Shown here one piece after another: positions 8,612-43,402 of a stretch of DNA of 64,000 nt. The stretch's first letter is position 1. Each line of letters opens with the position of its first letter. The DNA is from an uncultured virus (IMG/VR IMGVR_UViG_3300042338_000192) (Duplodnaviria > Heunggongvirae > Uroviricota > Caudoviricetes): IMG/VR virus record IMGVR_UViG_3300042338_000192, positions 1 through 64,000 of that record. One strand, 5' to 3'. The notes below the pieces were generated by a model. That model saw nothing but the letters and a program-made list of their open reading frames with translations. It made no database searches and was not told the origin of the DNA. The position numbers and the translations under genes are program-made.

Positions 8612-8632
8612 TAACACAACAGGAATTTAATA

Positions 8633-10057: not shown

Positions 10058-10066
10058 GAGGCTAAA

Positions 10067-23895: not shown

Positions 23896-23896
23896 T

Positions 23897-24214: not shown

Positions 24215-24555
24215 AACTAAGTGATAATGATTTACCTATCTATGAAATAGCTTTTCATTTAAAGATGCCTGTGTATAAAATGGTAGATGAAATGCCTTAT
24301 GATGAATTCTTAGGGTGGCTTAACTACTTTGAGCGTAGGCCATATGAATGGAGGGCAGATGATAGAGCGGCTAAATTAATACAAGCACAGGGCGTTAAAG
24401 AGAAGCCTTGGAATTTGTTTTCTTCATTGGATGCAATTTATAATAGTAAATCAGAAGATAGACAAGATAATGCACTCAGCCCTAGTAACTTTAAACGTTC
24501 TGGATTCTTCCAGAAAATAGCTGGAGCAGTTGGTGGGGAGACTCTTAAATTATGA
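24205..24555 (+). CDS. Tail assembly chaperone -1 frameshift extension (gpT-like)
   Basis: The -1 frame is open from GGGAAAG (GKVKLSDNDLPIYEIAFHLKMPV...EMPYDEFLGWLNYF) and in frame with track ORF 24265-24555. Confidence 0.8.
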   Translation, partial: GKVKLSDNDLPIYEIAFHLKMPVYKMVDEMPYDEFLGWLNYFERRPYEWRADDRAAKLIQAQGVKEKPWNLFSSLDAIYNSKSEDRQDNALSPSNFKRSGFFQKIAGAVGGETLKL

Positions 24556-24845: not shown

Positions 24846-24849
24846 TAAC

Positions 24850-24906: not shown

Positions 24907-27900
24907 ATGACAGGTATCGTAATTGATATCGAGGCTAAAGTTGACAAGGCACAGGGTAGTATTGATGCTTTAGCAAGATCTCTGGCCAAGATATCTCAGA
25001 ACACAAATAATATAGAAAAAGCGCTAACTGAAGGTTCTTTATCAAAAGAAATTGGTAAAAAGCCTACAGAAAGTATTAGTAAATTAAATAAAGAATCTAG
25101 TAATTTTAAAGATACGTTAACTAAGACAGATAAAACATTTACTGGTTCATTTTTAAATAAATCAAGTGATTTAAAAGTAAACAAATCTTTAGATAAAACT
25201 GGTGATTCATTAAGAAGTATTAATGATCTCGCAGTAGGTCTTGCTGGTAATTTAAAAGCTGCATTTGGTGCAGTTGCGTTTGGCGGAGCCTTTGCAGGAC
25301 TCACTAAAGTGTCTTCTGATTTTCAAGATTTAGAAAACCAAATTGCTAATGTTGTAGGACGTTCTGAACAACTTGCAGCAACGATGCTTAGCCTTAATGA
25401 TGTAGCATTGCGTACAAGAACGCTATACGCATCGACAACTACTGTATTTACAGGCTTTGGCAGAGCAATGAAAGACACTAGAGTCTCTATGGAGACTTTA
25501 CTAGGTGTTACTGAAACTATTCAGAAAGCTGTAGCAGTGTCTGGTGCATCTACTGATAGTGCTAATGCTGCACTATTCCAATTAAACCAAGGATTATCTG
25601 CTGGTGCATTACGCGGTGAAGAGTTAAATTCAGTGATGGAACAAACTCCTCGTATTGCTAAGGCTATCGCTGATAATTTAGATGTGAGTTTAGGTAAACT
25701 AAGAGAATTAGCCTCCACAGGACAAGTAACAACAGCAGTTGTAATGAAAGCCTTGTTAGATCAAGCTAAGCAAATTAATAAAGAATTTGCTGTAATGAAA
25801 CCTACAATGGCGCAGGGTGTTAGTAAATTAGGCGAAATGATTAAGTCTATTGCATCTGAATTTGAAAAAGGGTTAGGATTATCAGACTTCTTTGGGGAAT
25901 TTCTTTCAGATGCTATTCATGCATTAAGTGAAGTTTCTAAAAATGCTTTTGAAATGGGTGTCAATTTTGGTAGAGTAATAACTAACATAAAAGAGAGAAT
26001 GAAAGATTTTGCAGAACCAATCATTTTTGGTTTTGAGAAAATTGTCTTAAAAGTTAAATTATTACTTGGCGCATTAGGCATTTCAACTTTTGTTAAGAAA
26101 GAGATTGGCGAAGCCAAATATATCTTTGATGCATATATTAAAACTGCAGTACGCTCATATGAAGCATATGGTGCTGTATTACGTACACTTGGTAAAAGAG
26201 GTGTAGGTAAGGGTATTTGGTCTGTAGATGACTCTCCTATGATTATTACAGCATTTAAAAATACTTTCCTTGTGTATAAATCACAACTGAGTGTATTAGG
26301 CTCTAGAATGCTTTCAAGCGGTAGAGTACTTAAAGAGAATTTAAAATCTGTATTTGCAATGTTACCTCAAATGCTTGGGGAAGTTTTAATTGCAAAGAAA
26401 ACAGGATATCTCTTAAAAACATATATGTCAGATATTCTTGACTTTCGTGCAGAAATTCCTCGTGTTATTGGTAGAATGGGAGTGTATCTTTTTGATGCGC
26501 TTTCTAGTATGTTTTCTAGAATTGCAAAAGGCCTTGTAGTAAGCGATTTGTTTAGCAGTTTTATTGCCAGATCCTCTGATAATAGAAAAGTTGCTAAAAT
26601 ATTAAATGATATATTCTATTTTATTGCTTCTAAATTATCAGAAGGCTTTAACTATCTTTCTGATAAAACAAAAGAATTGACTGACTGGTCTTTCTTAGAT
26701 TACATTACAAATCGTTCACAAACTATTACTGGGCGTTTAAGAGATAGTTTTGCTTCTCTATTCCAAATGAAAGGCCCTTCGTTATCTTTTAGAAAAGTAT
26801 TTAATATTGTTGTTATACAATTAGACGAATTTTATAACAAATCAATTATAGTATTTGATAAGATTCAAAAAGCATTTAATAAATTTGGTGTAACAACTAA
26901 GTTTGCAAAAATGTTTAGCGGTGTAACACAAGACACCAATAAAGCTTTAGCTGGAATTAAGAGTTACTTTAGATCTTTACAAAATGAATTAGTAATTAAA
27001 TTTGAGAGTGACACTTTTGCTAAGAATATTGGTAAAGTATTTAAGAGTTTGCAAGGCACTGGTACAATCCTAAAAGTATTAGCTAAGACTCTATACCAAG
27101 CATTTGTTACAATTAAAAGTACTTTAAGCTCTATTAATGAAGCTTTTGACACAGCTGGCGTTTACAATAGACTTCTTCAAGGTCTTAGATTCATTGAAAA
27201 ACTTTTTGGAAACTTTATCAAAGGAATTCGTGGTAAACTAAAAGATCTTGAGAGTTCAACTAATATAAGCTTCAGCGCAAAAGATTTAGCTAAGAGTATA
27301 AATAAATTATTTGACGGTATTGAGAATCAAACCAATAAATTAGAAAAGGCCTTTGGCGCTATTTCTAAATTTGGTGAAAATGTAATAGAAGTATTCTTTA
27401 AAATATATGATGCTGTTATCGGTAATTCATGGTGGACAGATACCATTGATTCAATAATCAGTACAGTTAGAAGTCTTAAAAATAATACTGACGGTGGTTT
27501 GAAACAATTTGCAGGAAATACTATTCGTGTATTCCAAGCAATTTATGAAGTTGTTATAAGCATATTTAAAAGAATTTCTACAGTAGATATTTCTAGCAAT
27601 CTCCAGAAAATGTTGGAAGCTGTTAAAACTATTTCACCAATGGCTGCAAATGTATTGTCAAGTATTGGTGACGGTGTTGTAAGTAGCTTTAGAAAAATTA
27701 GAAGCATAGTCGCAGATACCTTACGTAGTGATTTTGTAATCAGCATCTCAACAGGCAATTTTAGAAAATCTATTGAAATAGCTAAAGACTTTGCTAAAAA
27801 CTTATTTGATGGGTTGCCAGAAGAATTAAAACATTCATTAACAGCTTTTGCTAATGTTTTTGGATTAGCTTTTGTATCGCTATTACTGCCAGAAAATAGA

Positions 27901-30900
27901 ATTACTTCTATGCTTGGTGGCTTATTCTTAAGAGCCGCTATTGCTGCAGGGCTAGCATTTGCTAACGTATTTGCTGATGTAAGATTTGGTGTTAGCTTCT
28001 CTGTAGAAGCTGGCAAAGTGGCAGGCAAAGTAGCTGGAACAGTTTTATTAGGAATATTAGCGGACTTGCCTGCAATTATATCTAATCTGTTAGGATTCAT
28101 TGGCGGTGCTGTTGAAGGCTTCTTGAAGAGTATCCCAATTGTAGGTACTGTTGCGAGCATGGTATATGGGATACTGGATCTATTTCAGTTTAGTACAGCT
28201 GGTGGCTTGATTGGTGCATTACTATTTGGCGGACCCGCTCTTAAAATGTTATCTACATTAGGAATATTTGAAAAGCAAATTTCTAGAATATTCAAAGTAA
28301 CAGGCTCTATTGGTTCATTCTTTGGTGGAACAATGGCAAATACTGCTGTTGCTGGCCACAATATGACACGTTTAATGACTAACCCTGCACACGTAGGAAT
28401 GGGGCCACCATTACCTCCTGGAGTTGGATACCAGTCTAGACCACAAACTGCAATGAGTCGTGCGTCATCCTCATTCTTTAGTTCAGGCAATGTAGTAAGT
28501 TCTAGTGCAATGGTCGCATTGGTTGCTGATCAATTAGGGATGTTTGATCAAGTATTCTATGATAGTCCTTTAGGGCATGCATATATGCAAGGCGGTTTAA
28601 TTGCATTAGCGTTAATGGGGCCAAGCGGTATTGATGCAATTAGATCTAAAATTATATATCCGGTAATGCGCGAATTATCTATGCTATTTCCAGAGGGTAC
28701 TATAAGAGGCAATCTTGTAAGAATGTTTGGAATGCTAGGCAGCATGGTAAGAGATCCTTCTATACTTGCTAATTTATTTGCAGGTATGAGAGAACGTTTT
28801 GCTTCTGCATTTACTGGCACTGGTACGGGAACATTCTTTTCTAGATTACTTTTTGGACCAACAGGAATACCCGCAACTTCATTAGGAGCTTTTTATAATT
28901 CTATTGAAAGTGCCTATAACTATGCAACAACAAGATTTGCAGCGGTATCACCACTTCTTGCATCCGCGTTTGGGCATCCTATTGTAAAATGGATTATGTT
29001 AGCTGTAGCAGCACTTGGTGCATTAACATTTTCTAATATGTCAAGCGCTGATACAATGACACCTTCATTGAATGGTGAGACATTTTACAGAGGTATTCAA
29101 GAAGCTCCACAAGGGCCACCTACAGACTTAATAAACAAACCTCGTGCTGAAACTGTAAAACCGTATCATAGAATTCCTGTTCCTAGTTTCAGAGAAATGA
29201 CAGGTCGTGGTACAGGCCATACTGTATTACAAAAGATTGCAGATGAAGTAGGATACGGATATGACAGATTATCACTATCTATTACTAATGGTCTTAAAAA
29301 TCTTATTCAAAATATTTCAGATATCTTACCAACAAGTTTAAAAGGCATGTGGGACAGTCTCACACCTAGCCAAGTAGCTATTGGCGGTATTGCACTACTA
29401 GCTGGGGCGTTAACAGCTCTATATAAACCTCTGATTAATTTGCAATTAGCATTAAGCCCTATTACATTATTTAGAGCAGCATTAGCAGCTTTAGGTAATC
29501 AATTACTTGCATTTCAAGGTATTGCAGCTACATCAGGATTAAAGTCTGTTGGCTTAAACATGAAGTCTTATACAGGTCTCTATGTAAGTGCGTTGTGGGA
29601 TACGATGCGTCAAGCATCTCCTATTCTAGATAAGCTAGCAAGTAAGATCGGTGGTAGTAGTATAGTCAAGAACTTAGGCGCTAATATCAGTAAATATAGC
29701 TCTGAATTAAAACAAGGCATGTCCGATAGAACTATGGCAGAAGCAGTTGCTGCAGATCTTAGAAATAGAAAAAGAACTTATAAAGAAGAACGAACATCTC
29801 GTTTTGATAGGTTCAGAAGCGCTTTTGAGCCTAATCCAAGTAAAGGTCCAGAAACTAAAGGCCAAACAGCAGTTAGAGGGTTTGCTAGATTCTTACAAGA
29901 AAGCTCAGCGCCTATTACAAGCGGAGCAGGAACTGTATTGCAGCAAGGATTCCAAAAGTTTCCTAATTTAACAAAAGTATTTGATACTGTAAAAGAAAAA
30001 GGTGAAATACTTGCCAGAACTAGTCCAGACAAATTTGTTCCAAGACTTAAACTATATACAGCTGAATTATATGCAATGGCACGTGCAACAGCTATTTTAA
30101 GAGAAACAATGGGGGGTAAGTTTGTATCCCTATGGTTAGCAGAAGTAGCAGGCGCAATGGGAGGCCTTACTGGTCTAACAAATAGAATAACATTGATGAC
30201 CAAAGCTTTAGCCCTGATGGTTAATACTCTGAAATTTATATCTACTTGGCGGGCAGCCATAGTCAGTGTTGGCGCTGCAGTTTTATTTCGTATACCATTC
30301 TTAGAAAGTACTGACGAGTTTAAGAAGGCCGGTGAACGCGGAAGAAAAGCCTTTATGGGTTCTTTCGAACTGGGTGGTTCTCACGTGGACGTAGCAGCTA
30401 CACTCTTTGGTGGATTAATTCCAGCAATTGCAGCAGGTGTTGTTGGTGTACAACGTAGTAGATTTAATGCAGCAAAAGAACTTGCTAATAACGTATTAGA
30501 TACAAAGATTTCACAAGGATTGACTCCTGCTAATGTTGATAGAAGTTTATATACTAGTAATGCTGCCATAAAGAAGCAATTATTGCAAAAAGATCTTGAA
30601 GCGCAATATGCAGGAATGACTCCAGCAGATAGACGCAAAGATTTTAACCGCATGGGAAGTTATGGCGGATTGCCAATGAACCAAGCAAGCTACATGCAAT
30701 ATTATATGGCAAATCCTAATAGAGCATTGCTAGGTGCTAAGGGCGCATTAACTAAAGGTATTGCAGGTGCTGGAGCAACCGCTACCACTCTCGTTGCAGC
30801 AGGGGCGGCAGGTGCTTATGTAGGAAATAAGATTGGTGGAGAAACAGGTGCAGGTATTGGCGCTGGATTAGCCATGATGTTCAGTTCAATGGTTATCCCT

Positions 30901-33900
30901 AAAATTACTTCATTCTTTATCACTATTGCAAAATTTATTCCAAGATTATTTTTAGGCTTTAATATATTTGCGCTTACAGGCGGCATTCTTGCAATGTATT
31001 TAATGGGTAGTAACGGCACATTAATGGGAGCCTTGGATGATATATACGAAAAAGTTAAAAAGATACTTGGGATCCATTCAGCAGCAAAAGATAAAAAGAC
31101 TGGATTACTAAAAAGTGAAGCTGACACTGCTACTCAATATGGAATTTCTCTTAAGTATGATGCAAGGCTAATTGATGAGTCTAATATTGAAGATCCTCAG
31201 ATATTTGAGAGATACACCAAGGCTCAAGAAACATTTAAATCTTCTATGGAAGCTTTAAAGAATGCTGAGGATAAAGGCGGTTCTGGTGATAAATCAGCTT
31301 TACAAAAAGATGCAGAGAAAGCAGCTGAAGTATTAAATAAGAAAGCTGCAGAAGCAATGCGAGCATCTAGGTTCAATATGCAGAAAACTGTAGATCTTTT
31401 TAAGAATTTTACAGTGGAGCGGTCAACTCGTCTTGATGAAGTGTTTGGTGGCGCAGACTCATTATCTCTACCTACGCGGAAAGGTTCAAAAGCAAGCGGA
31501 ACAATTTCTGCACGTGAAATGACTATGAGTACTGCGTACTTGACACCTGAGCAAGATGCAGTAAAAGCACGTATTTTTGAACTTAAGGCAATGGCGGATG
31601 AAGCTGTTAAATTAGGTGAATTGCCCGGTCTTGATGAAAATTTCAAAATGAGTCTTGCAGTTGCAAGTAATGATGTATATAAATATACAACAAAGATAAA
31701 TGAAGATCTGAGTTCTATGTCTATGCAGAATCTTTTAGGCAGTCCAGATTTAAAAGTTGATATCTCTTATTTTGAAAAATCAGTAGATGCCTTAGGCAAA
31801 TTCGTATCACGTGCAAAAGAAATTGCAAAAGCGCTTGCAGATGAACAAATATACACTAATCTTGTAAGTTCATTAGTAGGTAATTTAAAAGATGCTAATG
31901 TAAGTATAACCGCTAATGATATATTACCTGAATCTGAAAATAATGCTGCAATTTCAAGATTGCAACAATTAGGGTTAGAAGCTAAAAGATTAAAAGACCA
32001 TCTCGATCATACGTTCAGTACTAAAGATCGAAACGCAACTTTATCTACATTAAGAGCTGTTGAAAGAGAAGCTAAACTTGCACAAGAAATGGCAGCTGAT
32101 ACTGCAACAATTGGTCCAGTAGCTTTAGCCAAAAATATAGAGAAGCTTGGAATTAGAGGTGTAGAAGCATTACGTTTTGTAAATGAAAAAGCAACTCTTG
32201 ATATCAAGCAGGCTACTTACGGGCAGATGATGACTACATCACCTGAAAGAATTAGTCGTGCGCTTGTGGGTAATGATTTAAGGACTAATGTGCAAAGAGG
32301 TGTCCAAAGTCCTCCTCGTGATTTAAATATAAAAGAAGTAAATGCTCCTGAGCAAGTTCCATTTAAATCTGTAAACCCTGCATTTATCAAAACGCCTTCA
32401 ATATATGATATCCCTGCATTAAATATGTTAGGGGCGCCTAATAAATTTTCTCTTTTACCTAAGGCTACTACAAGAGATTTGAGTTCATTTTTACCACCTG
32501 CACTTAAAGAGCCTCTTATTATCCCTATTGATGATAAGGTTACTGCAGAATCGTTGAATAGGTTTGCATTAAAAGTAGTAGCAGCTAGGGCAAATATAGA
32601 AGCTACTTTAACCAAACCTGAAGATAAACCTAATCCATTTTTAAAAGATACTGCTGAATGGATTAAGGTTGAAAGAGAAAATGCAACGGCAGCTGATAAT
32701 TATAATAAACGTCTTGAAGAGCGAAAATACGATTTAGAGAATATAGATTTATGGATGGTTCAACTTGCTGCCGATACTAAAAGATTTCAAGATACTGATC
32801 CATTTGCCAAAGCTTTGCAAGGTTTAAAAGATATTGAAACATCAGGCATTAACTATCAACAAGTGTTTAAAGATTTTGGAAGAGCCGACGCTGATAAGGC
32901 GGCTACTAACATTGCTAGACTTAAGAATGCTATTCAAGATCTTAGAGATGGTAAATATAAAATTGCAGGTGGAGATCCACAAGGATTAATAAATAATTAT
33001 GAAGATGAATTAGCTCGAGCAGAAGCTGCGATAGCGCACAGAGAGATTCAATTCCCAGAATTTGGGCTAGATGCTCCTCGTAAGTTTAGGGCAGTCAGTG
33101 TAGACTTGTTGAAAGAAATTGATAGTGTTGATAAGCAAATCTTTAATCTAAACTCTGATATTAAACTAGCAGGTAATGATACTGGTAAAATTAAAACACT
33201 TAGCATAGAATTAGCTAAAGCTGAGAAACGCAGAGAAGAGATCAAAGCAGGTTTTGCAGATCTTACTTCGAAAACTTCTACAGTAAATGAAGTTTTTGGC
33301 TCTAATATGTCTACAGCGTTGATGGCAGGGTTGCCCTCTAAATTATGGGCACAATTATCAGGTACTGCTACACAATATAAAACTGCATTAGAAGAAGCTA
33401 TGAAAGAGTCTGATATGACTTCTTCAACTGAAGCACTTGCAACTAGCTTTGAAAATCTAAAATCTCATACGTCATTCTTAGGTTTCTTCGTAGATATGAA
33501 GACGCGCCTTAAGGAGACTATAACAGACGGGTTTACTTCTTCATTTGAGAAAATCAAATCGGGATTACCTGATTTAAATATCAATGCATCTCAATATGCT
33601 GCATTACCAACTACACAAAAGGTAGAGCTTAAGAATCGTGCAGATACAATTTATTTTGCTGAAGCATTGCAAAAGATGGACTCTATGTCAGGTGAAATGT
33701 ATAATTTTGCAACAGATAAACTTAAAGGTGGTATGCCGATTAAGGATATCCTATCTGGAATGGAATCGCGATTTGGTAAAGAGTTTGCTAATTTAAACAT
33801 TGCTGGCAAATTGACACCACCTCAAAGTTTCTCTGAAATGCTTCTCACAGCTGGCGCAGATATCAAGTCAGGTGCCTCAGAATTTCGTGGGGCTGTCACT

Positions 33901-36900
33901 GACCTAATTGCAGGAAAGCCGGCCACAGGCGGTACCGCAGAGTCCCCACAAACAGCTATTCCGCAGTCAGAGCTGGCACCGATGCCAAAAGCGTCAAGCA
34001 TGGCAGTCCCAGAAGGATTCAGTGCCAAAGAACTAAATAATTCAACATATGATGCAATCTTCAAAGAAGCGGCAACTAAATACAATGTTGATTGGATAGC
34101 TTTAAAAGCATTAGGAATTGTTGAAAGCAGATTAAAGAAAGATGCTGTAAGTGATAAAGGTGCTATTGGTGTTATGCAATTAGTGCCTAGATGGCATAAG
34201 CTTAATGACTATACAGATGCTCGTGAAAATATATTTGCAGGTGCTAAATACTATAAGTCAGGATTGAAAAGAAATAACGAAGATCTTGCAATGACTGCAG
34301 GCGGTTATAATGTAGGCTTTGGCAATAGCTATAATAATACAGAGACCCAAAATCAAATTTCCAGATTTAGGGATGTGTATGGGTATCTTAAGGGCGCTCC
34401 TGTTGCTGATACATCTGCCCCAGTAACTAAAGTTGATGGAACATTAAATACTGTTGCATTAAAAGCTAATACAGTAAAAGATGAAATGGCTTCTGCGTTT
34501 CAATTATGGATTGAAACATATAAGATAGCGGCTAATAATCAAGAAACATTAAACACTGCTAATGCTGATTTAGTTAAAGCAGGTGGCGCATTAGGTCGTG
34601 AAACACAAAAGACTTTAATAACTGAAGCTGGCTTTACTGAAGACGCATTCTTAGGTATGAATACTGAGCTTAAGAATTATGCATTAACTGTTGCCGGTAA
34701 AATTAATCAATTAAAAGCTGATATAGATGCTGCAATTAAAGCTGGTAAACCTACTGAGCAGTTTCTCCAAGATAGACTAAATGCATCTGCAGGTGTCGAA
34801 GGTACTAATAAAGGTCTGGCTGCAAACACAATGCCTACTACCTTAAAAGAAATGGATGCATTCCGTAAAGCTTCTACAGGAAATATTACAGCATTCCTTA
34901 GAGAATATAGCGGATTAAGCGCTGAAAATATTGATCTTATGACAGAAGAAGATAAGGTTAAAACAGGCATATTAGTCCATCAACAAGCTGATTTAGAATA
35001 TCAAATGGCTGTTGACGCAAAAGCAGGTAAATCAACTGTTGATACAGCAGGTAAAATTCTTAGTCTTGGCGATGATATCAAGGATATGGGGGACAAGTCA
35101 GAAGTTGCAGCGGCTAGTATTAGAGCAGCAAGAGACGCTGGAAAGGCCTTTTCTAGCACATTAACTACTGGCTTTACAGACGCATTTAAAGGGTTGTTAC
35201 GTGGCGAAAAAGATAGTGGACAAAATGCATTCCAAACCTTTGCTTCTAAACTCAAACAAAATTTAATCGACTCTACTATTAACTCTTTTTCTACTGGTGT
35301 AACTAATTCATTAGGCTTTGGTAAAGGCGGTGCTGTTGAAAACATGGCATCAGGCCTTGGTGAAGGCATCTTTAAGATGTTTGATAAGGGTATTAATTCT
35401 ATTCCAGGAGTTACTACTGCTTCTGCTGCAACTAGTAATTTCTCTAAGAGTGTCGGCAGTTTCTTTAAAAATGATGTTGGTAATTTCTTTGGCTTTGCAG
35501 AGGGCGGTCCGATAGTAGGCCCGGGAACTGGTACATCTGATTCGATAATGGCTAAATTATCCAATGGTGAATTTGTTATAAATGCTAAATCAACTGCTAA
35601 ATATGGTAATTTGATTAATGCTATTAATAATGATAAACTTCCTAAGTTTGCATTAGGTGGTATGGTAAATAAGATTGCTAATGCAGAAACAAGAAGTCCT
35701 TTATTCTCTAATATCCCTGTCTTAGAAAAACCTACTCAAACCAATGTAACTATTGATACCGAAATTCTAGATACTTCTGCATTTAAATTAAATAAGTCAG
35801 CAACTGATTTATCTGATTCAGCAGCTAAAGGGTCAAGTCTTTGGGATAAGTTAGCTGCAGCCGCAGGCGGTAGTACCCCTGTTACATCTTTAACTGGTGT
35901 TGGTGTTGATGTCGGTAAGCAAGTTCTTAAATTCTTTTCAGATACCGGGAAATGGGCATGGAACGGTCTTATTGATGTTGGCTCTAAAGTCGGTACATTC
36001 TTTTCGGACAGTGCTAAATGGGCATGGAATGGCATCGTTGATGTTAGTACTGCAATTGGAGATTTCATTTCGAAGAATGCAAAGTGGGCTTGGAATGGTA
36101 TCGTTGATGTCGGTTCTAAGGTTGAAGATTTCTTCTCAGATACCACTAAATGGGCATGGAGCGGTCTTGTTGACGTAAGTACTAAAGTCGGTGCATTCTT
36201 TGCAAACGCAGGAAAGTGGGCATGGAATGGTTTAATTGACGTAAGTACTAAAGTCGGTGCATTCTTTACAGACAGTGCTAAATGGGCATGGAATAGCTTA
36301 ATTGATGTTGGATCGAAAGTTGGTACATTCTTTGCAGACGCTAGAAAGTGGGCATGGACTAATCTTGTAGATGTCGGCTCTAAGGTTGGAGATTTCTTCT
36401 CAGATACCACTAAATGGGCATGGGATGGTATTGTAGATGTCGGTAAAAAGGTCGGTACATTCTTTGCGGATACTGGAAAGTGGGCATGGAGTGGCATTAT
36501 AGATGTCGGTAAGAAGGTTGGAGATTTCTTTTTAGACACCACTAAATGGGCATGGAGTGGCATTATTGATGTTGGTGCTGCACTTGGAGACTCTATTTCG
36601 AAAAATGCAAAATTAGTATGGGACGGTGTTATCGATGTTGGTAAGAAGGTTGGGGATTTCTTTACAGACACCACTAAATGGGTATGGACCGGTATTGTAG
36701 ATGTTGGCAAAAAGGTTGGGAATTTCTTTACAGACACCACTAAATGGGCATGGGATGGTATTATAGATGTCGGTAAGAAGGTTGGGAATTTCTTTACAGA
36801 CACCACTAAATGGGCATGGACCGGTATTGTAGATGTTGGCGCTAAGGTTGGCGGGTTCTTTACAGATAATGCTAAATGGGCATGGAATACTGCTGTAGAT

Positions 36901-39900
36901 ATTAGCGCCAGTATTGGTACTTGGGTCACTACAAACGCTGCAACGCTTTGGAAAGGTACTGTAAATCTTGGTGCCGATATTGGTAAAGGAATCACATGGG
37001 CGTGGACAAGTGCTATTGATTTGGCTGACAGCGCAAAAACTTGGATAGAAACAGCCGCAAATAACTTTTGGAAAGGCTCTATAGATTTAGGTACGAAAGC
37101 TGGAGATTGGATAGGTACAACCACTAGTAAATTCTGGACAGGTACTGTAGCATTAGGTACAAAAGTTGGGGATTGGATAGGTACAAGTGCCAATAACTTT
37201 TGGGGAGGTACTGTAGCTTTAGGTACGAAAGCTGGAGATTGGATTACCACAAAAGCTTCTGACTTTTGGACAGGGACAGTAGCAGTAGGTACAAAAATCG
37301 GTGACTGGATAGACACAACAAGTAGCAAGTTTTGGACAGGCACCGTAGATATTGGAACAAAACTAGGGAGCTGGATCAGTACTAATGCATCAACTCTCTT
37401 TACAAATGCTGGGCAAGTGTTAACTGATACAGGAGCAACACTAGCTGAGACTGGAAAAGTCGCATGGTCAGGTATTGTAGATATCAGCTCAAGTCTTACA
37501 GCATGGTTAAAAGAGACAGCAAATATAACATGGTCAGGTATTGCAGATGTTAGTTCAAGCATTGGTACTTGGATAGGTACTGCAGGTAATTGGACATGGA
37601 CAAAAGCTGTAGATGTAAGTAAAAGTGTCACCGACTGGTTAGGAACTGCTGCCAATATTACATGGTCAGGTCTTGCTGATATTTCTACAAGCCTTAGTGC
37701 GTGGTTTACAACAAAGGCCGGTAGTTTTATTACTGGTACTTTAGATGTCGGTTCACAAGTTGTAAATACAGTCGGTTCAACGTTAGCTGAAACTGGGAAA
37801 ATTGCATGGTCAGGAATTGTTGATATTAGCGCCAATTTAAAAACATGGCTAGGCACTGCATCTAATATCGTTTGGTCTGGAGCTGCAGAGATAGGGGAAA
37901 GTCTCAAAACTTATTTATCGAAAGCAGGTAATTGGGTTTGGAATACAGGTGCAGATATTTCTGTAAGTGTAGGTACATATCTTAAAACTGCAGGAAATTG
38001 GTTATGGTCAACAGCAGTAGATATAGGTGATAGCGTTAGTAAGGCTGTTCCAACTATTGCAAAATGGGCATGGACTAGTACTGTAGATATAAGTAAAAGT
38101 GTTACAAGCTGGCTAGGCACTGCGGCTAATATAACATGGTCAGGTATTGCAGATATTTCCAGCAGTCTTGGTTCATGGTTTACAACAAAGGCCGGTAGCT
38201 TTATAACTGGGACTTTGGATGTAGGTAAGCAGGTTGTCAGCAGCACTGCTGCGGTCATCTCAGATACAAGTAAAATAATCTGGAACGGTACTGCAGACAT
38301 TGGAACAAGCTTAAAAACTTATCTTAGCAAAGCTGCAAATTGGACATGGACAACAGCAACAGACCTTGGTGCGGGTATTACTGCGTTTATTGATAAGTCT
38401 GCAAACTGGGCATGGGCAAAGGCAATAGATGTTGGCGCGAATATTAAAGCATTCTTAGCCAAAGGTGCTAATTGGGTTTGGACAAATGCTGTGGATATTG
38501 GGACAGCTCTTACAAGTTTTGTCACCACAAAAGGTAATTGGTTGTGGTCAACAGCTACAGATCTTTCGGCAACGGTAGGAAGTAAAATTAAAGATTTAGC
38601 CACATTCACATGGGGTGGTGTTGTCGACATGGGCACTACAGTAGGCGATAGCCTAACCCAGTGGTTTAGAGACTTTGAGATGCCAGCTTTCGAACCTAGT
38701 AGTTGGGTGAACCAAGCTAAAGTTGTCGGTGGCGCTGTGTGGGATTGGGTTGCAGCTGGGTTTAAAAGCTTAGATAAATTAGATTTTAGTAAATTTATTT
38801 CAAGTATCTTTAAAACAGGTGGTGTAACAGGTACGCCTAACGCTGATGCAAAAATAGGTGGTGGTATATTCCAAGGCTCAGGGACAGGTACCTCTGATTC
38901 TAATGTTATTAGAATTTCGAATGGTGAGTATATTATTCCTGCTAAGCAAACTGCTGAGTATGCTGATGTACTGAATCAAATTAGAGCTGGTACTTTTGGG
39001 AAAGGAATGCCAGAAGGTGTTAATCTAGGTGATTATGCGAAAGGTATTGAAACTGGAAAATATTCTACGACTAGTAACAAAGGTTTCTTTGATGCAATTG
39101 GTAAACTAAAGACCTATGATGCTGCTGGAAATCCAACAGGACATTACTGGAAATCTGAATATGCGCCTATAATGGATTCATTAGGTTCTGCATTTACATC
39201 AGGATTGCCTTCAAATTCTTCTGTTGCTTATAATGGTAAGAGTTATAATATAGCTGCTTTCAATAAATTAATGATGAAGGGCATTAGTGGTGCAGGCCAA
39301 TTAGTTAGGACAGCGCTAGGGAAATACTCTTGGGATAATACTGGAGAAATGTCTGATTGGACTCCTGATATTTCTGAAACGCCTATAGCTGGCACATCTC
39401 AGTATACTATGGAGCAGTTAAGGTATACTTTTGGAAAGCAAGGCGAAGCTATCGGATACTCGGATATAAAACCTACTGATATGACTACTAAGTTCATATT
39501 AAGTGATAATGGCGCTAGACAAGTTCCTAATCTCTTAAATGATGATAGTAATTGGTTTGGTACAGGTATTCTGTTGCCTAATGATCCTTCTATGTCAGTA
39601 GAAGATATGGCTGCAATTAGAGCGCATAACTATTTAAACCTTAGACGATTTGATTCTATTGCTGATAAGCAAACAGGTAAAGGTTTACTGCGTGTATTCA
39701 ATCAAAATCCTAAAACTAAAGCTTTTGAACCTGCCAAAGGTTCTTTAGGACCTTGGAGAACTCAATCAGAAGTAAATAAGTTAATTGAAAATTCAGGCTA
39801 TTTAGGGAATACACAATTCTTTGATAACACAACAGTTGCACAAATGGATGCTGTCAGAGAAGCTTCCTTTCCTGTGATAAGTGCGTATAATGAAGAATCC

Positions 39901-42594
39901 CAAAATACGCTTAAAAAGTTTAAACCAAATTTAGGTACATTAGGCATTTTTGCAGGAACAGGTGCATCATCATTATTCAATTTGAATGACAGCATTGATG
40001 GATATGTATGGCCAGCTGGTATGAATAATGCCACTGCATTAGCTAAAATAGGATTACAAAATAAGCAATATTCTGAATTATTAGCAAAAAGTGAAAATCC
40101 GTTAGCAGATGCAGCAGTTTTCTGGCAAAACACCAAAGGTTCAACTCATTATGAAAAAGAACTTGCAAAAACTTCAAGTGTATCTGGTCATTCTTCTATA
40201 AACTATTGGGAAGATTATTTCGGACAAAAGGCTTTAGATTTAATCAATACATACCATCCTGACGCTTCTAATAATTATTTAGGCACAGCAGTACAACCTA
40301 AGCCTAACGCTCAAGTTCAAAAAATATTAGAAGCTACAGAAAAAGCTTTTGAGTTACCTTTGAAAGCAGATGGATCTCCATATTCAGATGATGATATCAA
40401 AGCAATTCACCAAGGATTAGTCGATTCTAATATTCTAAGTAAAGTTGTTGCGGGATCTACTAAAAGTGCTGTAGGCTTAAATGGGTTCCAAATTCCTTCT
40501 AATGTTATGGCCAGTTTGCTTAAAGACGGCCAACTAGGTACAGGTAGTTGGGCATTAGAGAAAAACAGTGGAATGTACAATTACACTGAAGAAGCTGTAG
40601 CAAATGGTACAAAGATGCGTGAGACTGTCTTAGGCCTTACTAGTGCTGCAGGTGATCTCGTAACAGAGAGAATTCCTACAGATAAGCCTATGTTAGAGTT
40701 GAATAAAGCAGGCAAGTGGGAATTACCAAAAATAAAGGTATCAGAAGACACCACCAACCGTTTAACAGCTAAATTGATTTCAAATGTAGCTACTGGAAAA
40801 TCTAAAGTCAGTGATTGGATGCAACCTAAAACATCAGATTTAGTAGATTACTCAAAAGCTGTCAAAATTGATTTATCAAAATTTGGTACTAATAAGCCAA
40901 ATACCAGTATAATGGATACAATCACTAAGAATTTAACTCCTGCTGGTATTAAAAAGTTTGGTACAGATGGCAGTCAACTAATAGCAGATCTTGCAAGTAA
41001 GATTTATAAGTCAGGTGTTGATGTTGCAATTACAATGCAAGACTATTATAAAAGTTTAACTGCAGATGGGTATGCTCAATCTATCGCTGTCAACAGTATT
41101 CCGGATGTAATGGCAGCATTGCCTAATATTCCTGTTAACAGTTTTCCTTTTGGCGTAGATGAGCTAGCCGGCGATTTTAGTAGTTCAATTGGGAAGCAGT
41201 TTACTCTAAAGAATCTTACTAACCAGCCTTTAAATACTGGATATTTTCCAAATGATTCTAAAATTGGTTTATCAGATTTTGACGCAAAGATGGCTCAAAG
41301 CCAATTAAATAATCTTATGCAGTATGTTAGATCTGGGAAGCCTATGACAGAAGCTCAGAGACTTGGTGCTGAATGGGTATTACAACAAAATGGTCAAGAT
41401 TTTAATAAATTAGCACCTCCTTCGATGTTTGACAAAGCTTTGAATTGGATCATTCCAAATGCAGGCGCTAATGCAGATGTTCCGCCTGTATTGAACTTCT
41501 TAACTTCTCCATCTAAAGATGTATTATCAAAATTTTATCCAAAAGTATTTTCAGACCCTGTGGTATCAAATAAGATCATTGATGATTTAGCGCCAGATAA
41601 TGTACTAGATAGTACTACAACAAGTGCGTTATTAGAGAATATTGATTTTTCAAGTCTTGCAAAATCCTTAAATGGCAAGTTAGTAAGCGACTGGGGCAAG
41701 GATATGATAGCACCAATGCTATCAGGCGTAGAAGTATTAGACCAATCTACATACCCTAATCCTGAATTCGGTATTTGGGATCGTATGTTAAGCTGGGTAG
41801 GATTATCTGATAAGCCTGAAATTTTAACAGCAGAACAACATGATGATTATGAAACTTTCAAAGGTTACAAACCATTAGCTATTTCTAAACCAGTAACACC
41901 TTCGTTATTTAATTTTGGAAATGATCCTATTACTAAAGTTCCAATGTTGTCTATAGGTTCTGGTAAGTTATTAAAAGATTGGGAAGCAGATGAAAATCCA
42001 CTAATTACTCTTGCTAAGGATTCGCAAGGACAGGGGTTATCATCTAACTGGGATGCTGGATGGAAAAATGATTTTGGATTTAGTGATAACCAAATGACAG
42101 ATATCACTCCAATGGTTGAGGCAATATTCTCAGCATTTACCAATGACCCTGTTGGAACCATCGCATCTATTGTTACTCCAGCTGCTCAACAGACAGTAAC
42201 AAGTTTGTTAACTGGATGGTTATTCAGCTCAGTTATGGGCATGGCTACAGGCGGTTTAGTTAAAGGGCCGGGAACAGGAACTTCTGATTCTATTCCTACA
42301 ATGTTATCTAACGGTGAGTTTGTAATTAATGCAGCATCGACTGCAAGAAATAGACAATTACTTGAAGCTATTAATTCAGGTGCAACTATTTCATCTGCAG
42401 CTTCTCCTATTATGGCCGTACCAACTGCATCAAAAGCTAATAGTACGACAAATACTATTACTAATAATAGTGTTATTAATATGAATATAACAGGCGATAT
42501 TTCTCGCCAAACACGTGCTGAGATTTCACAAATGCTACCGCAAATCGCGGCTGGTGTGAATCAGTACAATCGTGAGCGTAATTATAGAGGTTAA
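24907..42594 (+). CDS. Giant tape measure protein (5895 aa) with lytic transglycosylase domain and Trp-rich repeats
   Basis: N-terminal tape-measure motif ANAALFQLNQGLSAGALRGEELNSVMEQTP. SLT motif LGIVE3073S...GAIGVMQL...YNVG. Three GxGTGTSDS..LSNGEF motifs. Follows the chaperone genes. Confidence 0.93.
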   Translation: MTGIVIDIEAKVDKAQGSIDALARSLAKISQNTNNIEKALTEGSLSKEIGKKPTESISKLNKESSNFKDTLTKTDKTFTGSFLNKSSDLKVNKSLDKTGDSLRSINDLAVGLAGNLKAAFGAVAFGGAFAGLTKVSSDFQDLENQIANVVGRSEQLAATMLSLNDVALRTRTLYASTTTVFTGFGRAMKDTRVSMETLLGVTETIQKAVAVSGASTDSANAALFQLNQGLSAGALRGEELNSVMEQTPRIAKAIADNLDVSLGKLRELASTGQVTTAVVMKALLDQAKQINKEFAVMKPTMAQGVSKLGEMIKSIASEFEKGLGLSDFFGEFLSDAIHALSEVSKNAFEMGVNFGRVITNIKERMKDFAEPIIFGFEKIVLKVKLLLGALGISTFVKKEIGEAKYIFDAYIKTAVRSYEAYGAVLRTLGKRGVGKGIWSVDDSPMIITAFKNTFLVYKSQLSVLGSRMLSSGRVLKENLKSVFAMLPQMLGEVLIAKKTGYLLKTYMSDILDFRAEIPRVIGRMGVYLFDALSSMFSRIAKGLVVSDLFSSFIARSSDNRKVAKILNDIFYFIASKLSEGFNYLSDKTKELTDWSFLDYITNRSQTITGRLRDSFASLFQMKGPSLSFRKVFNIVVIQLDEFYNKSIIVFDKIQKAFNKFGVTTKFAKMFSGVTQDTNKALAGIKSYFRSLQNELVIKFESDTFAKNIGKVFKSLQGTGTILKVLAKTLYQAFVTIKSTLSSINEAFDTAGVYNRLLQGLRFIEKLFGNFIKGIRGKLKDLESSTNISFSAKDLAKSINKLFDGIENQTNKLEKAFGAISKFGENVIEVFFKIYDAVIGNSWWTDTIDSIISTVRSLKNNTDGGLKQFAGNTIRVFQAIYEVVISIFKRISTVDISSNLQKMLEAVKTISPMAANVLSSIGDGVVSSFRKIRSIVADTLRSDFVISISTGNFRKSIEIAKDFAKNLFDGLPEELKHSLTAFANVFGLAFVSLLLPENRITSMLGGLFLRAAIAAGLAFANVFADVRFGVSFSVEAGKVAGKVAGTVLLGILADLPAIISNLLGFIGGAVEGFLKSIPIVGTVASMVYGILDLFQFSTAGGLIGALLFGGPALKMLSTLGIFEKQISRIFKVTGSIGSFFGGTMANTAVAGHNMTRLMTNPAHVGMGPPLPPGVGYQSRPQTAMSRASSSFFSSGNVVSSSAMVALVADQLGMFDQVFYDSPLGHAYMQGGLIALALMGPSGIDAIRSKIIYPVMRELSMLFPEGTIRGNLVRMFGMLGSMVRDPSILANLFAGMRERFASAFTGTGTGTFFSRLLFGPTGIPATSLGAFYNSIESAYNYATTRFAAVSPLLASAFGHPIVKWIMLAVAALGALTFSNMSSADTMTPSLNGETFYRGIQEAPQGPPTDLINKPRAETVKPYHRIPVPSFREMTGRGTGHTVLQKIADEVGYGYDRLSLSITNGLKNLIQNISDILPTSLKGMWDSLTPSQVAIGGIALLAGALTALYKPLINLQLALSPITLFRAALAALGNQLLAFQGIAATSGLKSVGLNMKSYTGLYVSALWDTMRQASPILDKLASKIGGSSIVKNLGANISKYSSELKQGMSDRTMAEAVAADLRNRKRTYKEERTSRFDRFRSAFEPNPSKGPETKGQTAVRGFARFLQESSAPITSGAGTVLQQGFQKFPNLTKVFDTVKEKGEILARTSPDKFVPRLKLYTAELYAMARATAILRETMGGKFVSLWLAEVAGAMGGLTGLTNRITLMTKALALMVNTLKFISTWRAAIVSVGAAVLFRIPFLESTDEFKKAGERGRKAFMGSFELGGSHVDVAATLFGGLIPAIAAGVVGVQRSRFNAAKELANNVLDTKISQGLTPANVDRSLYTSNAAIKKQLLQKDLEAQYAGMTPADRRKDFNRMGSYGGLPMNQASYMQYYMANPNRALLGAKGALTKGIAGAGATATTLVAAGAAGAYVGNKIGGETGAGIGAGLAMMFSSMVIPKITSFFITIAKFIPRLFLGFNIFALTGGILAMYLMGSNGTLMGALDDIYEKVKKILGIHSAAKDKKTGLLKSEADTATQYGISLKYDARLIDESNIEDPQIFERYTKAQETFKSSMEALKNAEDKGGSGDKSALQKDAEKAAEVLNKKAAEAMRASRFNMQKTVDLFKNFTVERSTRLDEVFGGADSLSLPTRKGSKASGTISAREMTMSTAYLTPEQDAVKARIFELKAMADEAVKLGELPGLDENFKMSLAVASNDVYKYTTKINEDLSSMSMQNLLGSPDLKVDISYFEKSVDALGKFVSRAKEIAKALADEQIYTNLVSSLVGNLKDANVSITANDILPESENNAAISRLQQLGLEAKRLKDHLDHTFSTKDRNATLSTLRAVEREAKLAQEMAADTATIGPVALAKNIEKLGIRGVEALRFVNEKATLDIKQATYGQMMTTSPERISRALVGNDLRTNVQRGVQSPPRDLNIKEVNAPEQVPFKSVNPAFIKTPSIYDIPALNMLGAPNKFSLLPKATTRDLSSFLPPALKEPLIIPIDDKVTAESLNRFALKVVAARANIEATLTKPEDKPNPFLKDTAEWIKVERENATAADNYNKRLEERKYDLENIDLWMVQLAADTKRFQDTDPFAKALQGLKDIETSGINYQQVFKDFGRADADKAATNIARLKNAIQDLRDGKYKIAGGDPQGLINNYEDELARAEAAIAHREIQFPEFGLDAPRKFRAVSVDLLKEIDSVDKQIFNLNSDIKLAGNDTGKIKTLSIELAKAEKRREEIKAGFADLTSKTSTVNEVFGSNMSTALMAGLPSKLWAQLSGTATQYKTALEEAMKESDMTSSTEALATSFENLKSHTSFLGFFVDMKTRLKETITDGFTSSFEKIKSGLPDLNINASQYAALPTTQKVELKNRADTIYFAEALQKMDSMSGEMYNFATDKLKGGMPIKDILSGMESRFGKEFANLNIAGKLTPPQSFSEMLLTAGADIKSGASEFRGAVTDLIAGKPATGGTAESPQTAIPQSELAPMPKASSMAVPEGFSAKELNNSTYDAIFKEAATKYNVDWIALKALGIVESRLKKDAVSDKGAIGVMQLVPRWHKLNDYTDARENIFAGAKYYKSGLKRNNEDLAMTAGGYNVGFGNSYNNTETQNQISRFRDVYGYLKGAPVADTSAPVTKVDGTLNTVALKANTVKDEMASAFQLWIETYKIAANNQETLNTANADLVKAGGALGRETQKTLITEAGFTEDAFLGMNTELKNYALTVAGKINQLKADIDAAIKAGKPTEQFLQDRLNASAGVEGTNKGLAANTMPTTLKEMDAFRKASTGNITAFLREYSGLSAENIDLMTEEDKVKTGILVHQQADLEYQMAVDAKAGKSTVDTAGKILSLGDDIKDMGDKSEVAAASIRAARDAGKAFSSTLTTGFTDAFKGLLRGEKDSGQNAFQTFASKLKQNLIDSTINSFSTGVTNSLGFGKGGAVENMASGLGEGIFKMFDKGINSIPGVTTASAATSNFSKSVGSFFKNDVGNFFGFAEGGPIVGPGTGTSDSIMAKLSNGEFVINAKSTAKYGNLINAINNDKLPKFALGGMVNKIANAETRSPLFSNIPVLEKPTQTNVTIDTEILDTSAFKLNKSATDLSDSAAKGSSLWDKLAAAAGGSTPVTSLTGVGVDVGKQVLKFFSDTGKWAWNGLIDVGSKVGTFFSDSAKWAWNGIVDVSTAIGDFISKNAKWAWNGIVDVGSKVEDFFSDTTKWAWSGLVDVSTKVGAFFANAGKWAWNGLIDVSTKVGAFFTDSAKWAWNSLIDVGSKVGTFFADARKWAWTNLVDVGSKVGDFFSDTTKWAWDGIVDVGKKVGTFFADTGKWAWSGIIDVGKKVGDFFLDTTKWAWSGIIDVGAALGDSISKNAKLVWDGVIDVGKKVGDFFTDTTKWVWTGIVDVGKKVGNFFTDTTKWAWDGIIDVGKKVGNFFTDTTKWAWTGIVDVGAKVGGFFTDNAKWAWNTAVDISASIGTWVTTNAATLWKGTVNLGADIGKGITWAWTSAIDLADSAKTWIETAANNFWKGSIDLGTKAGDWIGTTTSKFWTGTVALGTKVGDWIGTSANNFWGGTVALGTKAGDWITTKASDFWTGTVAVGTKIGDWIDTTSSKFWTGTVDIGTKLGSWISTNASTLFTNAGQVLTDTGATLAETGKVAWSGIVDISSSLTAWLKETANITWSGIADVSSSIGTWIGTAGNWTWTKAVDVSKSVTDWLGTAANITWSGLADISTSLSAWFTTKAGSFITGTLDVGSQVVNTVGSTLAETGKIAWSGIVDISANLKTWLGTASNIVWSGAAEIGESLKTYLSKAGNWVWNTGADISVSVGTYLKTAGNWLWSTAVDIGDSVSKAVPTIAKWAWTSTVDISKSVTSWLGTAANITWSGIADISSSLGSWFTTKAGSFITGTLDVGKQVVSSTAAVISDTSKIIWNGTADIGTSLKTYLSKAANWTWTTATDLGAGITAFIDKSANWAWAKAIDVGANIKAFLAKGANWVWTNAVDIGTALTSFVTTKGNWLWSTATDLSATVGSKIKDLATFTWGGVVDMGTTVGDSLTQWFRDFEMPAFEPSSWVNQAKVVGGAVWDWVAAGFKSLDKLDFSKFISSIFKTGGVTGTPNADAKIGGGIFQGSGTGTSDSNVIRISNGEYIIPAKQTAEYADVLNQIRAGTFGKGMPEGVNLGDYAKGIETGKYSTTSNKGFFDAIGKLKTYDAAGNPTGHYWKSEYAPIMDSLGSAFTSGLPSNSSVAYNGKSYNIAAFNKLMMKGISGAGQLVRTALGKYSWDNTGEMSDWTPDISETPIAGTSQYTMEQLRYTFGKQGEAIGYSDIKPTDMTTKFILSDNGARQVPNLLNDDSNWFGTGILLPNDPSMSVEDMAAIRAHNYLNLRRFDSIADKQTGKGLLRVFNQNPKTKAFEPAKGSLGPWRTQSEVNKLIENSGYLGNTQFFDNTTVAQMDAVREASFPVISAYNEESQNTLKKFKPNLGTLGIFAGTGASSLFNLNDSIDGYVWPAGMNNATALAKIGLQNKQYSELLAKSENPLADAAVFWQNTKGSTHYEKELAKTSSVSGHSSINYWEDYFGQKALDLINTYHPDASNNYLGTAVQPKPNAQVQKILEATEKAFELPLKADGSPYSDDDIKAIHQGLVDSNILSKVVAGSTKSAVGLNGFQIPSNVMASLLKDGQLGTGSWALEKNSGMYNYTEEAVANGTKMRETVLGLTSAAGDLVTERIPTDKPMLELNKAGKWELPKIKVSEDTTNRLTAKLISNVATGKSKVSDWMQPKTSDLVDYSKAVKIDLSKFGTNKPNTSIMDTITKNLTPAGIKKFGTDGSQLIADLASKIYKSGVDVAITMQDYYKSLTADGYAQSIAVNSIPDVMAALPNIPVNSFPFGVDELAGDFSSSIGKQFTLKNLTNQPLNTGYFPNDSKIGLSDFDAKMAQSQLNNLMQYVRSGKPMTEAQRLGAEWVLQQNGQDFNKLAPPSMFDKALNWIIPNAGANADVPPVLNFLTSPSKDVLSKFYPKVFSDPVVSNKIIDDLAPDNVLDSTTTSALLENIDFSSLAKSLNGKLVSDWGKDMIAPMLSGVEVLDQSTYPNPEFGIWDRMLSWVGLSDKPEILTAEQHDDYETFKGYKPLAISKPVTPSLFNFGNDPITKVPMLSIGSGKLLKDWEADENPLITLAKDSQGQGLSSNWDAGWKNDFGFSDNQMTDITPMVEAIFSAFTNDPVGTIASIVTPAAQQTVTSLLTGWLFSSVMGMATGGLVKGPGTGTSDSIPTMLSNGEFVINAASTARNRQLLEAINSGATISSAASPIMAVPTASKANSTTNTITNNSVINMNITGDISRQTRAEISQMLPQIAAGVNQYNRERNYRG
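35904..38760 (+). repeat. 66-bp (22-aa) Trp-rich tandem repeat array inside the tape measure gene
   Basis: About 15 near-canonical units VDVGxKVGxFFxDTxKWAWxGI, followed by diverged 22-aa units. Confidence 0.9.
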
Positions 42595-42595
42595 T

Positions 42596-43402
42596 ATGTC
42601 ATACGGTATCCTGAACGGTACTGCATTGATTGCTAAATTTATTGCACCATTAACAGTTAAAAGTAATCAACCAGTATTTAGTTCGGATACCCTTTCATTA
42701 TCTAGAGTTTCGGTAAAACGTAATGTCCAACGTTGGGAGATAGATGCAAATCTTGAACCCCTCGTTGGTACTGCTAACGATTTATTTGCACATCTAGTAA
42801 CTAAAGGGTCATCCGAAAGTTTTAAAATTAAAATGCCTCAGAATTATGGGGCACAATTACAAATAGAAAAACCATTAGAAATAACAGCAACACTAAATAA
42901 AGAAAATGGTAATGTGTTTACAGTAGTAACCCCATCTAATTTTAATTATGTAAGTGTCCTTAATAAAAGTATAATTGGTGTTGGAATAATAACATCTACA
43001 GATGCAGTAGCAAAGACATTAACTGTTACAACTTTAATTCCTGGGAATCCTGGACATAGTGAACCTAAGTCTTATTTTATTGACTCAGAAACGGAATTGA
43101 CAGTTGGCGCAGCGCTTGCTGGTGTAACTAGTCTACCAATTGTTTCTAATACTAATAAAAAATTGCCAGTAGGTCTCTTTATAACTTTCGGTATTGATCC
43201 AAAGGTTTATATGGTGGTTAGCCATACGACTTCTTTGGTAATATTTCCAGAGTTACGATTGCCAATAACTACTACAACGGCTGTAAAATATACAGAAGTA
43301 GAAATGAATGCCAAGTACGATACAGATGTTATCTCAGGCATGGTGTACAGCGATGGTATTATGATGACCACAGGCCAAGTTAAATTGATAGAGGCGTTAT
43401 GA
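42596..43402 (+). CDS. Putative distal tail protein
   Basis: Start refined to ATG 42596 (GAGG RBS). First gene after the tape measure; QRWEI and F..DPKVYMV motifs. Confidence 0.6.
   Translation: MSYGILNGTALIAKFIAPLTVKSNQPVFSSDTLSLSRVSVKRNVQRWEIDANLEPLVGTANDLFAHLVTKGSSESFKIKMPQNYGAQLQIEKPLEITATLNKENGNVFTVVTPSNFNYVSVLNKSIIGVGIITSTDAVAKTLTVTTLIPGNPGHSEPKSYFIDSETELTVGAALAGVTSLPIVSNTNKKLPVGLFITFGIDPKVYMVVSHTTSLVIFPELRLPITTTTAVKYTEVEMNAKYDTDVISGMVYSDGIMMTTGQVKLIEAL

Follow-up and report, generated by a model that had tools for sequence, protein, structure and literature searches.

How far does a tape measure protein (TMP) of 5,895 amino acids (aa) set the length of a phage tail, and what is the excess in such a protein for? 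These questions are raised by the open reading frame (ORF) at 24907..42594 of an uncultured virus of the Caudoviricetes, IMG/VR record IMGVR_UViG_3300042338_000192, of which we analyzed positions 1 to 64,000 (the window, 64,000 nucleotides [nt]; positions joined by two dots denote features on its + strand). The frame has an ATG start and one stop and encodes a 634-kDa protein with no cysteine. It makes up 27.6% of the window, as a first-pass annotation made from the letters alone had put it (28%), and ~22% of a complete genome of ~80 kb; the chance of 5,895 stop-free codons at 37.5% GC is ~1e-178, and no N occurs anywhere in the record. We favor, with moderate confidence, the reading that the whole chain would be threaded between a C-terminal plug and the tail terminator to give a flexible tail of ~0.8-0.95 um, and that its excess is a distal cassette exchanged by recombination, often at a module of the type found in lambda gpH.

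Anatomy of the tape measure protein

On sequence grounds, the product of 24907..42594 is a siphophage TMP. More specifically, its gene lies between the tail chaperone genes and the gene for the distal tail protein (Dit), with a major tail protein gene, two chaperone-like ORFs and a 97-aa ORF upstream, and its 3' end overlaps the Dit start; the protein has a TMP_3/tape_meas_nterm domain (aa 132-320, 25300..25866; Pfam PF20155, E 8e-48; TIGR02675, E 9e-20), hydrophobic segments and aromatic repeats of the 11-aa type; and the chaperone pair carries a -1 slip site. Residues 1-3,529 resemble other family members and are largely amphipathic. Nine strongly hydrophobic segments (Kyte-Doolittle) occupy 26020..31002, starting at aa 372-2014 with a cluster at 977-1093, and aa 824-1066 are homologous to residues 339-579 of the TMP of phage DSS3_VP1 (E 5e-12); this hydrophobic N-terminal third is likely the membrane-channel part. 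An SLT lytic transglycosylase domain follows (aa 3052-3148, 34060..34350; PF01464, E 3e-14) in a variable slot that was matched in 4 of 13 relatives and holds unrelated sequence in relative G022; proteins P0022 and P0037 carry a glucosaminidase at a similar position. We also noted that window positions 31500-32700 (aa ~2200-2600) are partly proline-rich and more variable among close relatives, with G006 being 62-95% identical there versus 94-100% in most flanking blocks, so that this stretch is possibly another exchangeable slot.

Three copies of a ~55-aa module, starting at aa 3529, 4649 and 5778 (1,119 and 1,130 aa apart), divide the distal part. Module 1 (AxGG...GxGTxTSDS...SNGEF...AxGG; aa 3529-3585, 35491..35661) precedes ~41 Trp-rich amphipathic 22-aa (2 x 11) repeats (aa ~3669-4570, 35911..38616), which match the TMP family phrog_5493 (E 3e-6) and resemble the aromatic 11-aa repeats reported to serve as the ruler in TP901-1 (PMC5099701). 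Module 2 (aa 4649-4700, 38851..39006) begins a 94.5%-identical block common to relative G007 and is followed by an orphan variable segment of ~1,075 aa (aa 4701-5777, 39007..42237) that is Pro/Asn/Asp-rich and internally mosaic. Module 3 (aa 5778-5830, 42238..42396) matches the TMPs of phages Douge and JBD30, and beyond it lies a C-terminal end (42454..42594) conserved across the family and in DSS3_VP1, which, by analogy with the T5, JBD30 and lambda structures, is likely a trimeric plug in the tail tip. We found no Pfam, PHROG or NCBIfam family in the orphan segment, nor any match to these collections elsewhere in the C-terminal third beyond module and repeat, and ESM Atlas searches with the segment, whole and in parts, returned nothing usable. 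A profile of the orphan segment run against 1.84 billion representatives gave seven matches, six of which were same-family TMPs or pieces of them and the seventh weak; its predicted fold (4-row alignment) was uninformative (predicted local distance difference test [pLDDT], 31), and its helical amphipathy is weak.

Comparison across relatives, a check proposed in the first-pass annotation, yielded 12 distinct complete TMPs, partial frames and duplicates excluded, of 2,752, 2,848, 3,341, 3,370, 3,467, 3,892, 3,969, 4,028, 4,720, 4,742, 5,362 and 5,895 aa. In the 11 of these that bear modules, 2,620-3,686 aa precede module 1 and 125-2,366 aa follow it, the window TMP having the longest distal part (2,366 aa). 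Because its pre-module-1 part lies within the family range, the excess of the window TMP is distal. Among 41 module-bearing proteins with the same family ending, the window TMP is the longest; on another branch, P0066 has 5,861 aa and one module. In a wider set of 91 module-bearing proteins (3,242-10,317 aa), 8 reach 5,000 aa, and the notion that the window protein is the longest TMP on record was rejected, four of the 91 being longer (6,066, 7,394, 7,470 and 7,683 aa). Our literature search, which covered subscription journals thinly and did not extend to supplements, found no characterized TMP above the ~5,000-aa P23-45 class, and the text available to us of PMC13585406 states no maximum TMP length. 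EBPR siphovirus 1 (L085:16980-27037) has its TMP in two overlapping ORFs (1,211 and 2,141 aa) with a short sequence repeated at their ends; a sequencing frameshift may have broken up a TMP of ~3,350 aa.

Exchange of the distal cassette

A 6.4-kb cassette (35856..42243) is replaced in the sister genome G001, a complete record of 78,740 nt whose TMP has 5,362 aa, 533 fewer than that of the window. The two TMP genes show 3 differences in their first 10,949 nt, diverge at aa 3650 and rejoin at module 3, and at the position of the Trp repeats the unit in G001 is 35 aa, not 22. Over the positions compared (all but 20001-22511), the genomes are ~100% identical at 10324-20000, 22512-35855 and 44001-64000, 98.7% identical at 42244-45793, and 95% identical at 1-5946. 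The other main difference is the side fibre region (5336..10321), in which the fibre is 67% identical and ORFs 8633 and 10067 are unmatched in the G001 stretch compared. The window side fibre carries CBM5/12 repeats, and the fibre together with the genes behind it is replaced in G001 (L090), making this a second variable locus.

Blocks of the distal part are shared more widely. G007 has ~94% nucleotide-identical blocks at aa 4671-5306 and 5574-5809, despite identities of only ~26% (N-terminal part) and 38% (Dit); G021 has aa 3531-3650 in common at 98%; and the G006 allele leaves that of the window at aa 3585 (35660). Pairs involving the window have nine block edges between aa 3,500 and 5,895, which are not independent of one another; five of them are located in modules, and modules account for 7% of this region (binomial p 2e-4). 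In the parts available to us, a large-scale survey of mosaicism in phage proteins reports that no recent TMP case could be confirmed (PMC10684548); the 94-100% identical shared blocks described here represent recent TMP mosaicism of that kind.

The alleles also occur together in sequencing runs. Of the 24 runs listed, 15 contained at least half of the sampled words, and 5 are possibly the source of the record; we compared 8, none of them from these 5, and left out the small-share runs X18-X24. Both the window and the G001 alleles are present in runs X8 and X9, in which contig depth, a rough guide to allele frequency only, drops from ~610 and ~330 to ~20-34 at a fork at 35855, from which a loose end leads into the G001 allele. 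The window allele takes up nearly all depth in X6 and X7, and a loose end at 35660 in X6, X7 and X9 corresponds to the G006 allele.

The same data bear on whether the 5,895 aa could be a product of misassembly at the 66-nt repeat or of chimerism between co-occurring strains, a reading to which we give almost no credence. Several alleles do co-occur, contigs fragment at the forks and between 35.8 and 36.8 kb (where run contigs split into 84-348-nt pieces), and no listed short-read contig covers the whole stretch. Against this, the longest exact repeat within the TMP gene is 42 nt, the 66-nt repeat copies match a reference copy at 60-81%, and 35800-38700 recurs letter for letter in the loci of four other records (G002-G005). 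Likewise, the 5,895-aa frame is present in G002 and G003, and the full protein stands on record in 4 contigs and one ENA variant (99.98% identical). Depth in the fragmented stretch is near single-copy in X8 and X9. In X6 and X7, neither of which was flagged as a possible source, all 30 bins are covered, and a common 2,424-nt contig (36790-39213) shows zero differences at flank-level depth (~10x and ~22x); two joints near 37,463-37,500, inside the repeat at the edge of the compared stretch, were not counted. The misassembled repeat that the first-pass annotation had named as a possible refutation was thus not borne out in these short-read assemblies.

The gpH-type module, tail length and competing readings

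The module that recurs at the edges of exchanged blocks is of the lambda gpH type, a C-terminal AxGG...GE(F/Y)V...AxGG element present in three copies in the window TMP. A profile of 228 module copies matched lambda gpH 730-801 (E 5e-8) and DSS3_VP1 1560-1600 (E 4e-6), with no match in P23-45 gp96. In the PDB sequence file, direct matches to the window module were found in the Douge TMP (gp16; 8zdo, two copies, E 6e-16) and at residues 1009-1055 of the JBD30 TMP (gp46; 8rk3, E 6e-8), the module lying outside the resolved residues in both structures. Overall, the module matched 1,275 phage records, with mostly TMP annotation among the 40 matches listed. For lambda gpH, which matures to gpH* and gpHC, a ~14-kDa C-terminal piece is reported to be cut off after tail assembly, at a site and by a protease described as unknown (PMC12617516); the mass of this piece places the cut near residue 715-730, beside the single homologous module at 730-801. 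In the JBD30 study, residues 1022-1066 are predicted to form a hook by which the TMP would be anchored once ejected, and a cut at 1066 is put forward as speculation (PMC11445458); T5 pb2 is reported to be cut after R1127 (PMC10038345). These three comparisons tie the module to the processed region of known TMPs. Cleavage at the window modules, comparable to the cuts close to the C-terminus in lambda and T5, is possible. A further likeness to lambda is the G/G-T-like chaperone pair of the window phage. T5 pb2 shares muralytic cargo with the window TMP; a T5-type C-terminal zinc metallopeptidase was ruled out for the latter, which has no HExxH or HxxExH pattern. We further observed six giant TMP-like proteins (P0043, P0054, P0065, P0069, P0073 and P0084) that have 3-5 module copies and carry NlpC/P60, CHAP, LysM, amidase, lysozyme or ADP-ribosyltransferase-like domains, mostly between the copies.

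Tail length was calibrated on three phages with reported tails: DSS3_VP1 (TMP of 1,655 aa; 230-240 nm; PMC8323127), JBD30 (1,158 aa; 180 nm; PMC11445458) and Douge (1,699 aa; 269.6 nm; PMC13033339). They give 0.139-0.159 nm per residue, in line with the ~0.15 nm cited in the first-pass annotation, and predict tails of 819-937 nm for the 5,895-aa TMP and 745-853 nm for that of G001, a difference of ~75-85 nm; the ratio of T5 is lower (~0.13, by hand) and would give ~0.77 um for the window TMP. The Douge TMP, whose two modules lie 437 aa apart, gives 0.159 nm per residue with the inter-module spacer and 0.21 without it (by hand); because the latter exceeds the 0.147 nm of a helix, Douge fits a helix only with the spacer counted. 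The P74-26 tail is described as the longest known (PMC10034513) and as reaching up to 875 nm (PMC13033339), and the window tail is predicted to fall within that range, not clearly beyond it. Of the Thermus phages invoked in the first-pass annotation (TMPs of ~5000 aa, tails of ~0.8 um), P23-45 has a gp96 of 5,002 aa and a tail reported as >800 nm (PMC9022992). That annotation had offered a choice between a tail approaching 0.9 um and much non-ruler cargo. Our predicted length agrees with the first option, and for the second one cargo domain was found, the SLT at aa 3052-3148; the either/or itself was too sharp. According to the published account, P23-45 carries its virion RNA polymerase (RNAP) inside full-size gp96 (PMC10770324), and with a tail of >800 nm cargo and ruler are therefore probably not alternatives.

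In the reading we favor, the tail tip would be plugged by the C-terminal end, with the chain coated by chaperones G and G-T during polymerization of ~200-230 tube rings. In an infection, the first part to exit the tube and contact the cell envelope would be the distal cassette, with the SLT domain breaching the peptidoglycan and the hydrophobic N-terminal third providing the channel for DNA. We regard the cassette as likely host-facing, so that tail length would follow from the cassette carried. Several points count against this reading. The calibration extrapolates 3.5-fold past the nearest cultured relative, for a phage known here from its genes alone. Four of the nine block edges lie outside modules, including the left junction of G001 (aa 3650), and the modules are conserved sites where block edges would fall regardless. 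Covariation of the side fibre with the TMP cassette was observed in one genome pair only. Among four orphan-segment alleles, none matched a known enzyme in Pfam, PHROGs or NCBIfam, and aa 4701-5777 might not thread as a helix, because this segment is Pro-rich and lacks an amphipathic helix signal. Finally, the predicted fold of module 1 (23 rows) is of low confidence (pLDDT 55; short strands and one confident helix), and Foldseek found no match to it in the PDB at E 0.001.

Some of these points would suit a ruler that is only partial, in which the cassette or orphan segment folds up, protrudes as a loop at the tip or is removed by cleavage at the modules before the tube polymerizes, leaving the cassette as pure cargo and a tail of ~0.5-0.75 um (3,650 residues correspond to 507-580 nm). 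The orphan segment is unlike an amphipathic helix, and the module starts at gpH 730, where the ~14-kDa cut falls (715-730; PMC12617516). In lambda, however, cleavage is reported to come after tail assembly (PMC12617516); the Douge tail length fits only with the inter-module spacer counted; repeats typical of TMPs make up ~900 aa of the cassette; and, because the C-terminal anchor is beyond it, the cassette lies between the ruler's two fixed ends. We regard a partial ruler as unlikely. Length might instead itself be selected, for reach through a thick capsule, sheath or appendages, with the cassette as interchangeable inactive filler. Such a view accommodates the expansion of different repeat units (22 aa in the window, 35 aa in G001) in the same slot, the 5,861-aa P0066 of another branch with its one module, and the lack of any enzyme found in the orphan segment; yet it leaves unexplained a 1,075-aa non-repetitive segment kept at 94% nucleotide identity between distant members, and the sister genome does well with 533 fewer residues, its allele being the deeper one in two runs. 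We consider filler a rather poor prospect. Going further than the favored reading, a ruler cut at the three modules would release polypeptides of ~118 and ~122 kDa ejected before the DNA, the orphan segment being a new host-specificity or takeover effector exchanged together with the side fibre in a wild phage population and the near-record length a by-product of host-driven cassette choice; we put this forward tentatively.

The first-pass annotation had further suggested that the extra length forms a trans-envelope conduit that also passes a MuF-RNAP fusion. The window phage does encode such a fusion to a T7-type RNAP (14114..19441; PF04233, PF00940), besides a second T7-type RNAP at 54470-56689, and our literature search found no description of a siphophage with two T7-type RNAPs, one of them MuF-fused. 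The fusion is also present in DSS3_VP1/PM1 and EBPR siphovirus 1, annotated only as a head protein; in the latter, an HNH gene interrupts it. An internal stretch of ~230 aa (query 508-738 of window 15914-19438) is missing from the MuF-RNAP in G011 and G022, and G014 has a longer frame. That the added sequence is an enlarged conduit needed for passage of this enzyme strikes us as very improbable. Lambda and T5 TMPs are reported to form channels (PMC12617516, PMC10038345), and the strongly amphipathic Trp repeats could associate with membranes. In contrast, four relatives whose TMPs measure 3,370-4,742 aa keep the RNAP part at 83-97% identity (all five relatives searched matched, the fifth being G001), and DSS3_VP1 has a homologous fusion alongside a TMP of 1,655 aa. 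Because relatives with short TMPs keep the enzyme, the extra length is not needed for it. Moreover, by Kyte-Doolittle analysis no strongly hydrophobic segment begins beyond aa 2,014, and none lies in the added distal part. The proposed conduit role was accordingly not upheld.

Neighboring genes, relatives and implications

The tail genes around the TMP include the major tail protein (22983..23618, 211 aa; phrog_158), which is 100% identical in G001, and a tail assembly chaperone pair (23867..24555), in which a -1 slip at GGGAAAG (24205-24211) would join both frames; read in the nucleotide sequence, the -1 frame from this heptamer stays open into ORF 24265. Lambda also uses the GGGAAAG heptamer. 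In 13 of 14 related loci this heptamer lies on or close to the stop codon, the remaining locus having no match, and the variant in DSS3_VP1 is GGGAAAC. Downstream lie Dit (42572..43402; phrog_1302; 99% identical in G001 and 38% in G007) and a hub/central fibre with a C-terminal S74 chaperone (43896..49130; PF13550, weak; PF13884). Tube-protein identity does not follow TMP identity: G022 has a near TMP N-terminus and a tube protein 50% identical to that of the window, and G007 a distant TMP N-terminus and a tube protein 88% identical. The tail module is mosaic gene by gene. Elsewhere in the window, adjacent genes for a heme oxygenase and a ferredoxin-dependent bilin reductase (10318-11685) lie between the fibre genes and a lysozyme, and stretches at 19599-19623, 19603-19753, 54210-54267 and 59775-59803 have copies at other positions in G001 (23-27 nt at 93-100%, plus an inverted match of 58 nt) and may be promoters or terminators of a phage RNAP.

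Among cultured phages, DSS3_VP1 and DSS3_PM1 (Naomviridae, Noahvirus) come nearest, with EBPR siphovirus 1 closer in the MuF-RNAP. Naomviridae and EBPR siphovirus 1 share with the window phage the head-tail gene order, the MuF-RNAP fusion, a second T7-type RNAP and the C-terminal end of the TMP. The major capsid, the portal and the TMP N-terminal domain are 40%, 41% and 44% identical to those of DSS3_VP1, in which the TMP has one degenerate module versus three, the window TMP being 3.6x longer. The syntenic head-tail module, RNAP and DNA polymerase agree with the Naomviridae, 13 of 16 genes tested matching the VP1 stretch at 30-46%. In a tree built on TMP_3 only, VP1 falls among the family rows beside a long branch. 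Naomviridae DNA is marked by deoxyuridine in place of thymidine. A further mark of that family, dCMP deaminase, was not found: PF00383 was present in 0 of 4 related records, and the VP1 dCMP deaminase gene had no tblastn match in G000, an incomplete record. None of 4 records has a Thy1 thymidylate synthase; as ThyA was outside this search, the result does not bear on DNA chemistry. A metagenome scan with Dit found no relative. Searching bacterial genomes with the capsid protein yielded one weak match and a 5.7-kb contig (64%) in a Beijerinckiaceae-labelled bin (L088); because so short a contig may be misbinned, we assign no host.

P23-45 and P74-26 (gp96, 5,002 aa; tails >800 nm) resemble the window phage in having a giant siphophage TMP, enzyme cargo within the ruler and two encoded RNA polymerases. 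The window TMP is longer than gp96, which has no sequence similarity to it (BLASTP, E 0.01) and no module, and, unlike that of gp96, its extra length is distal and swappable. The P23-45 RNAP is fused to the TMP, whereas the candidate virion RNAP of the window phage is of the T7 type and fused to MuF; a hidden P23-45-type RNAP in the window TMP was ruled out, with no DxDGD/DxDxD motif and no similarity to gp96.

Giant TMPs, muralytic cargo and C-terminal processing are already known. New here are a near-isogenic, co-occurring allele pair, recent TMP mosaicism, a parallel change of the side fibre (in one pair) and a cultured relative for calibration. Longer predicted TMPs exist, and no function was found for the cassette, which tempers the picture. 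If the ruler rule holds, a ~80-kb lake phage spends 22% of its genome on a tail that would match the longest known (P74-26, up to ~875 nm), outside hot springs. Near-identical phages that occur in the same samples and differ by 533 ruler residues and a side fibre amount to a natural experiment, and this allele pair allows a direct test of whether cargo between modules counts as length, whether the modules are cut, and whether the distal TMP contributes to host range.

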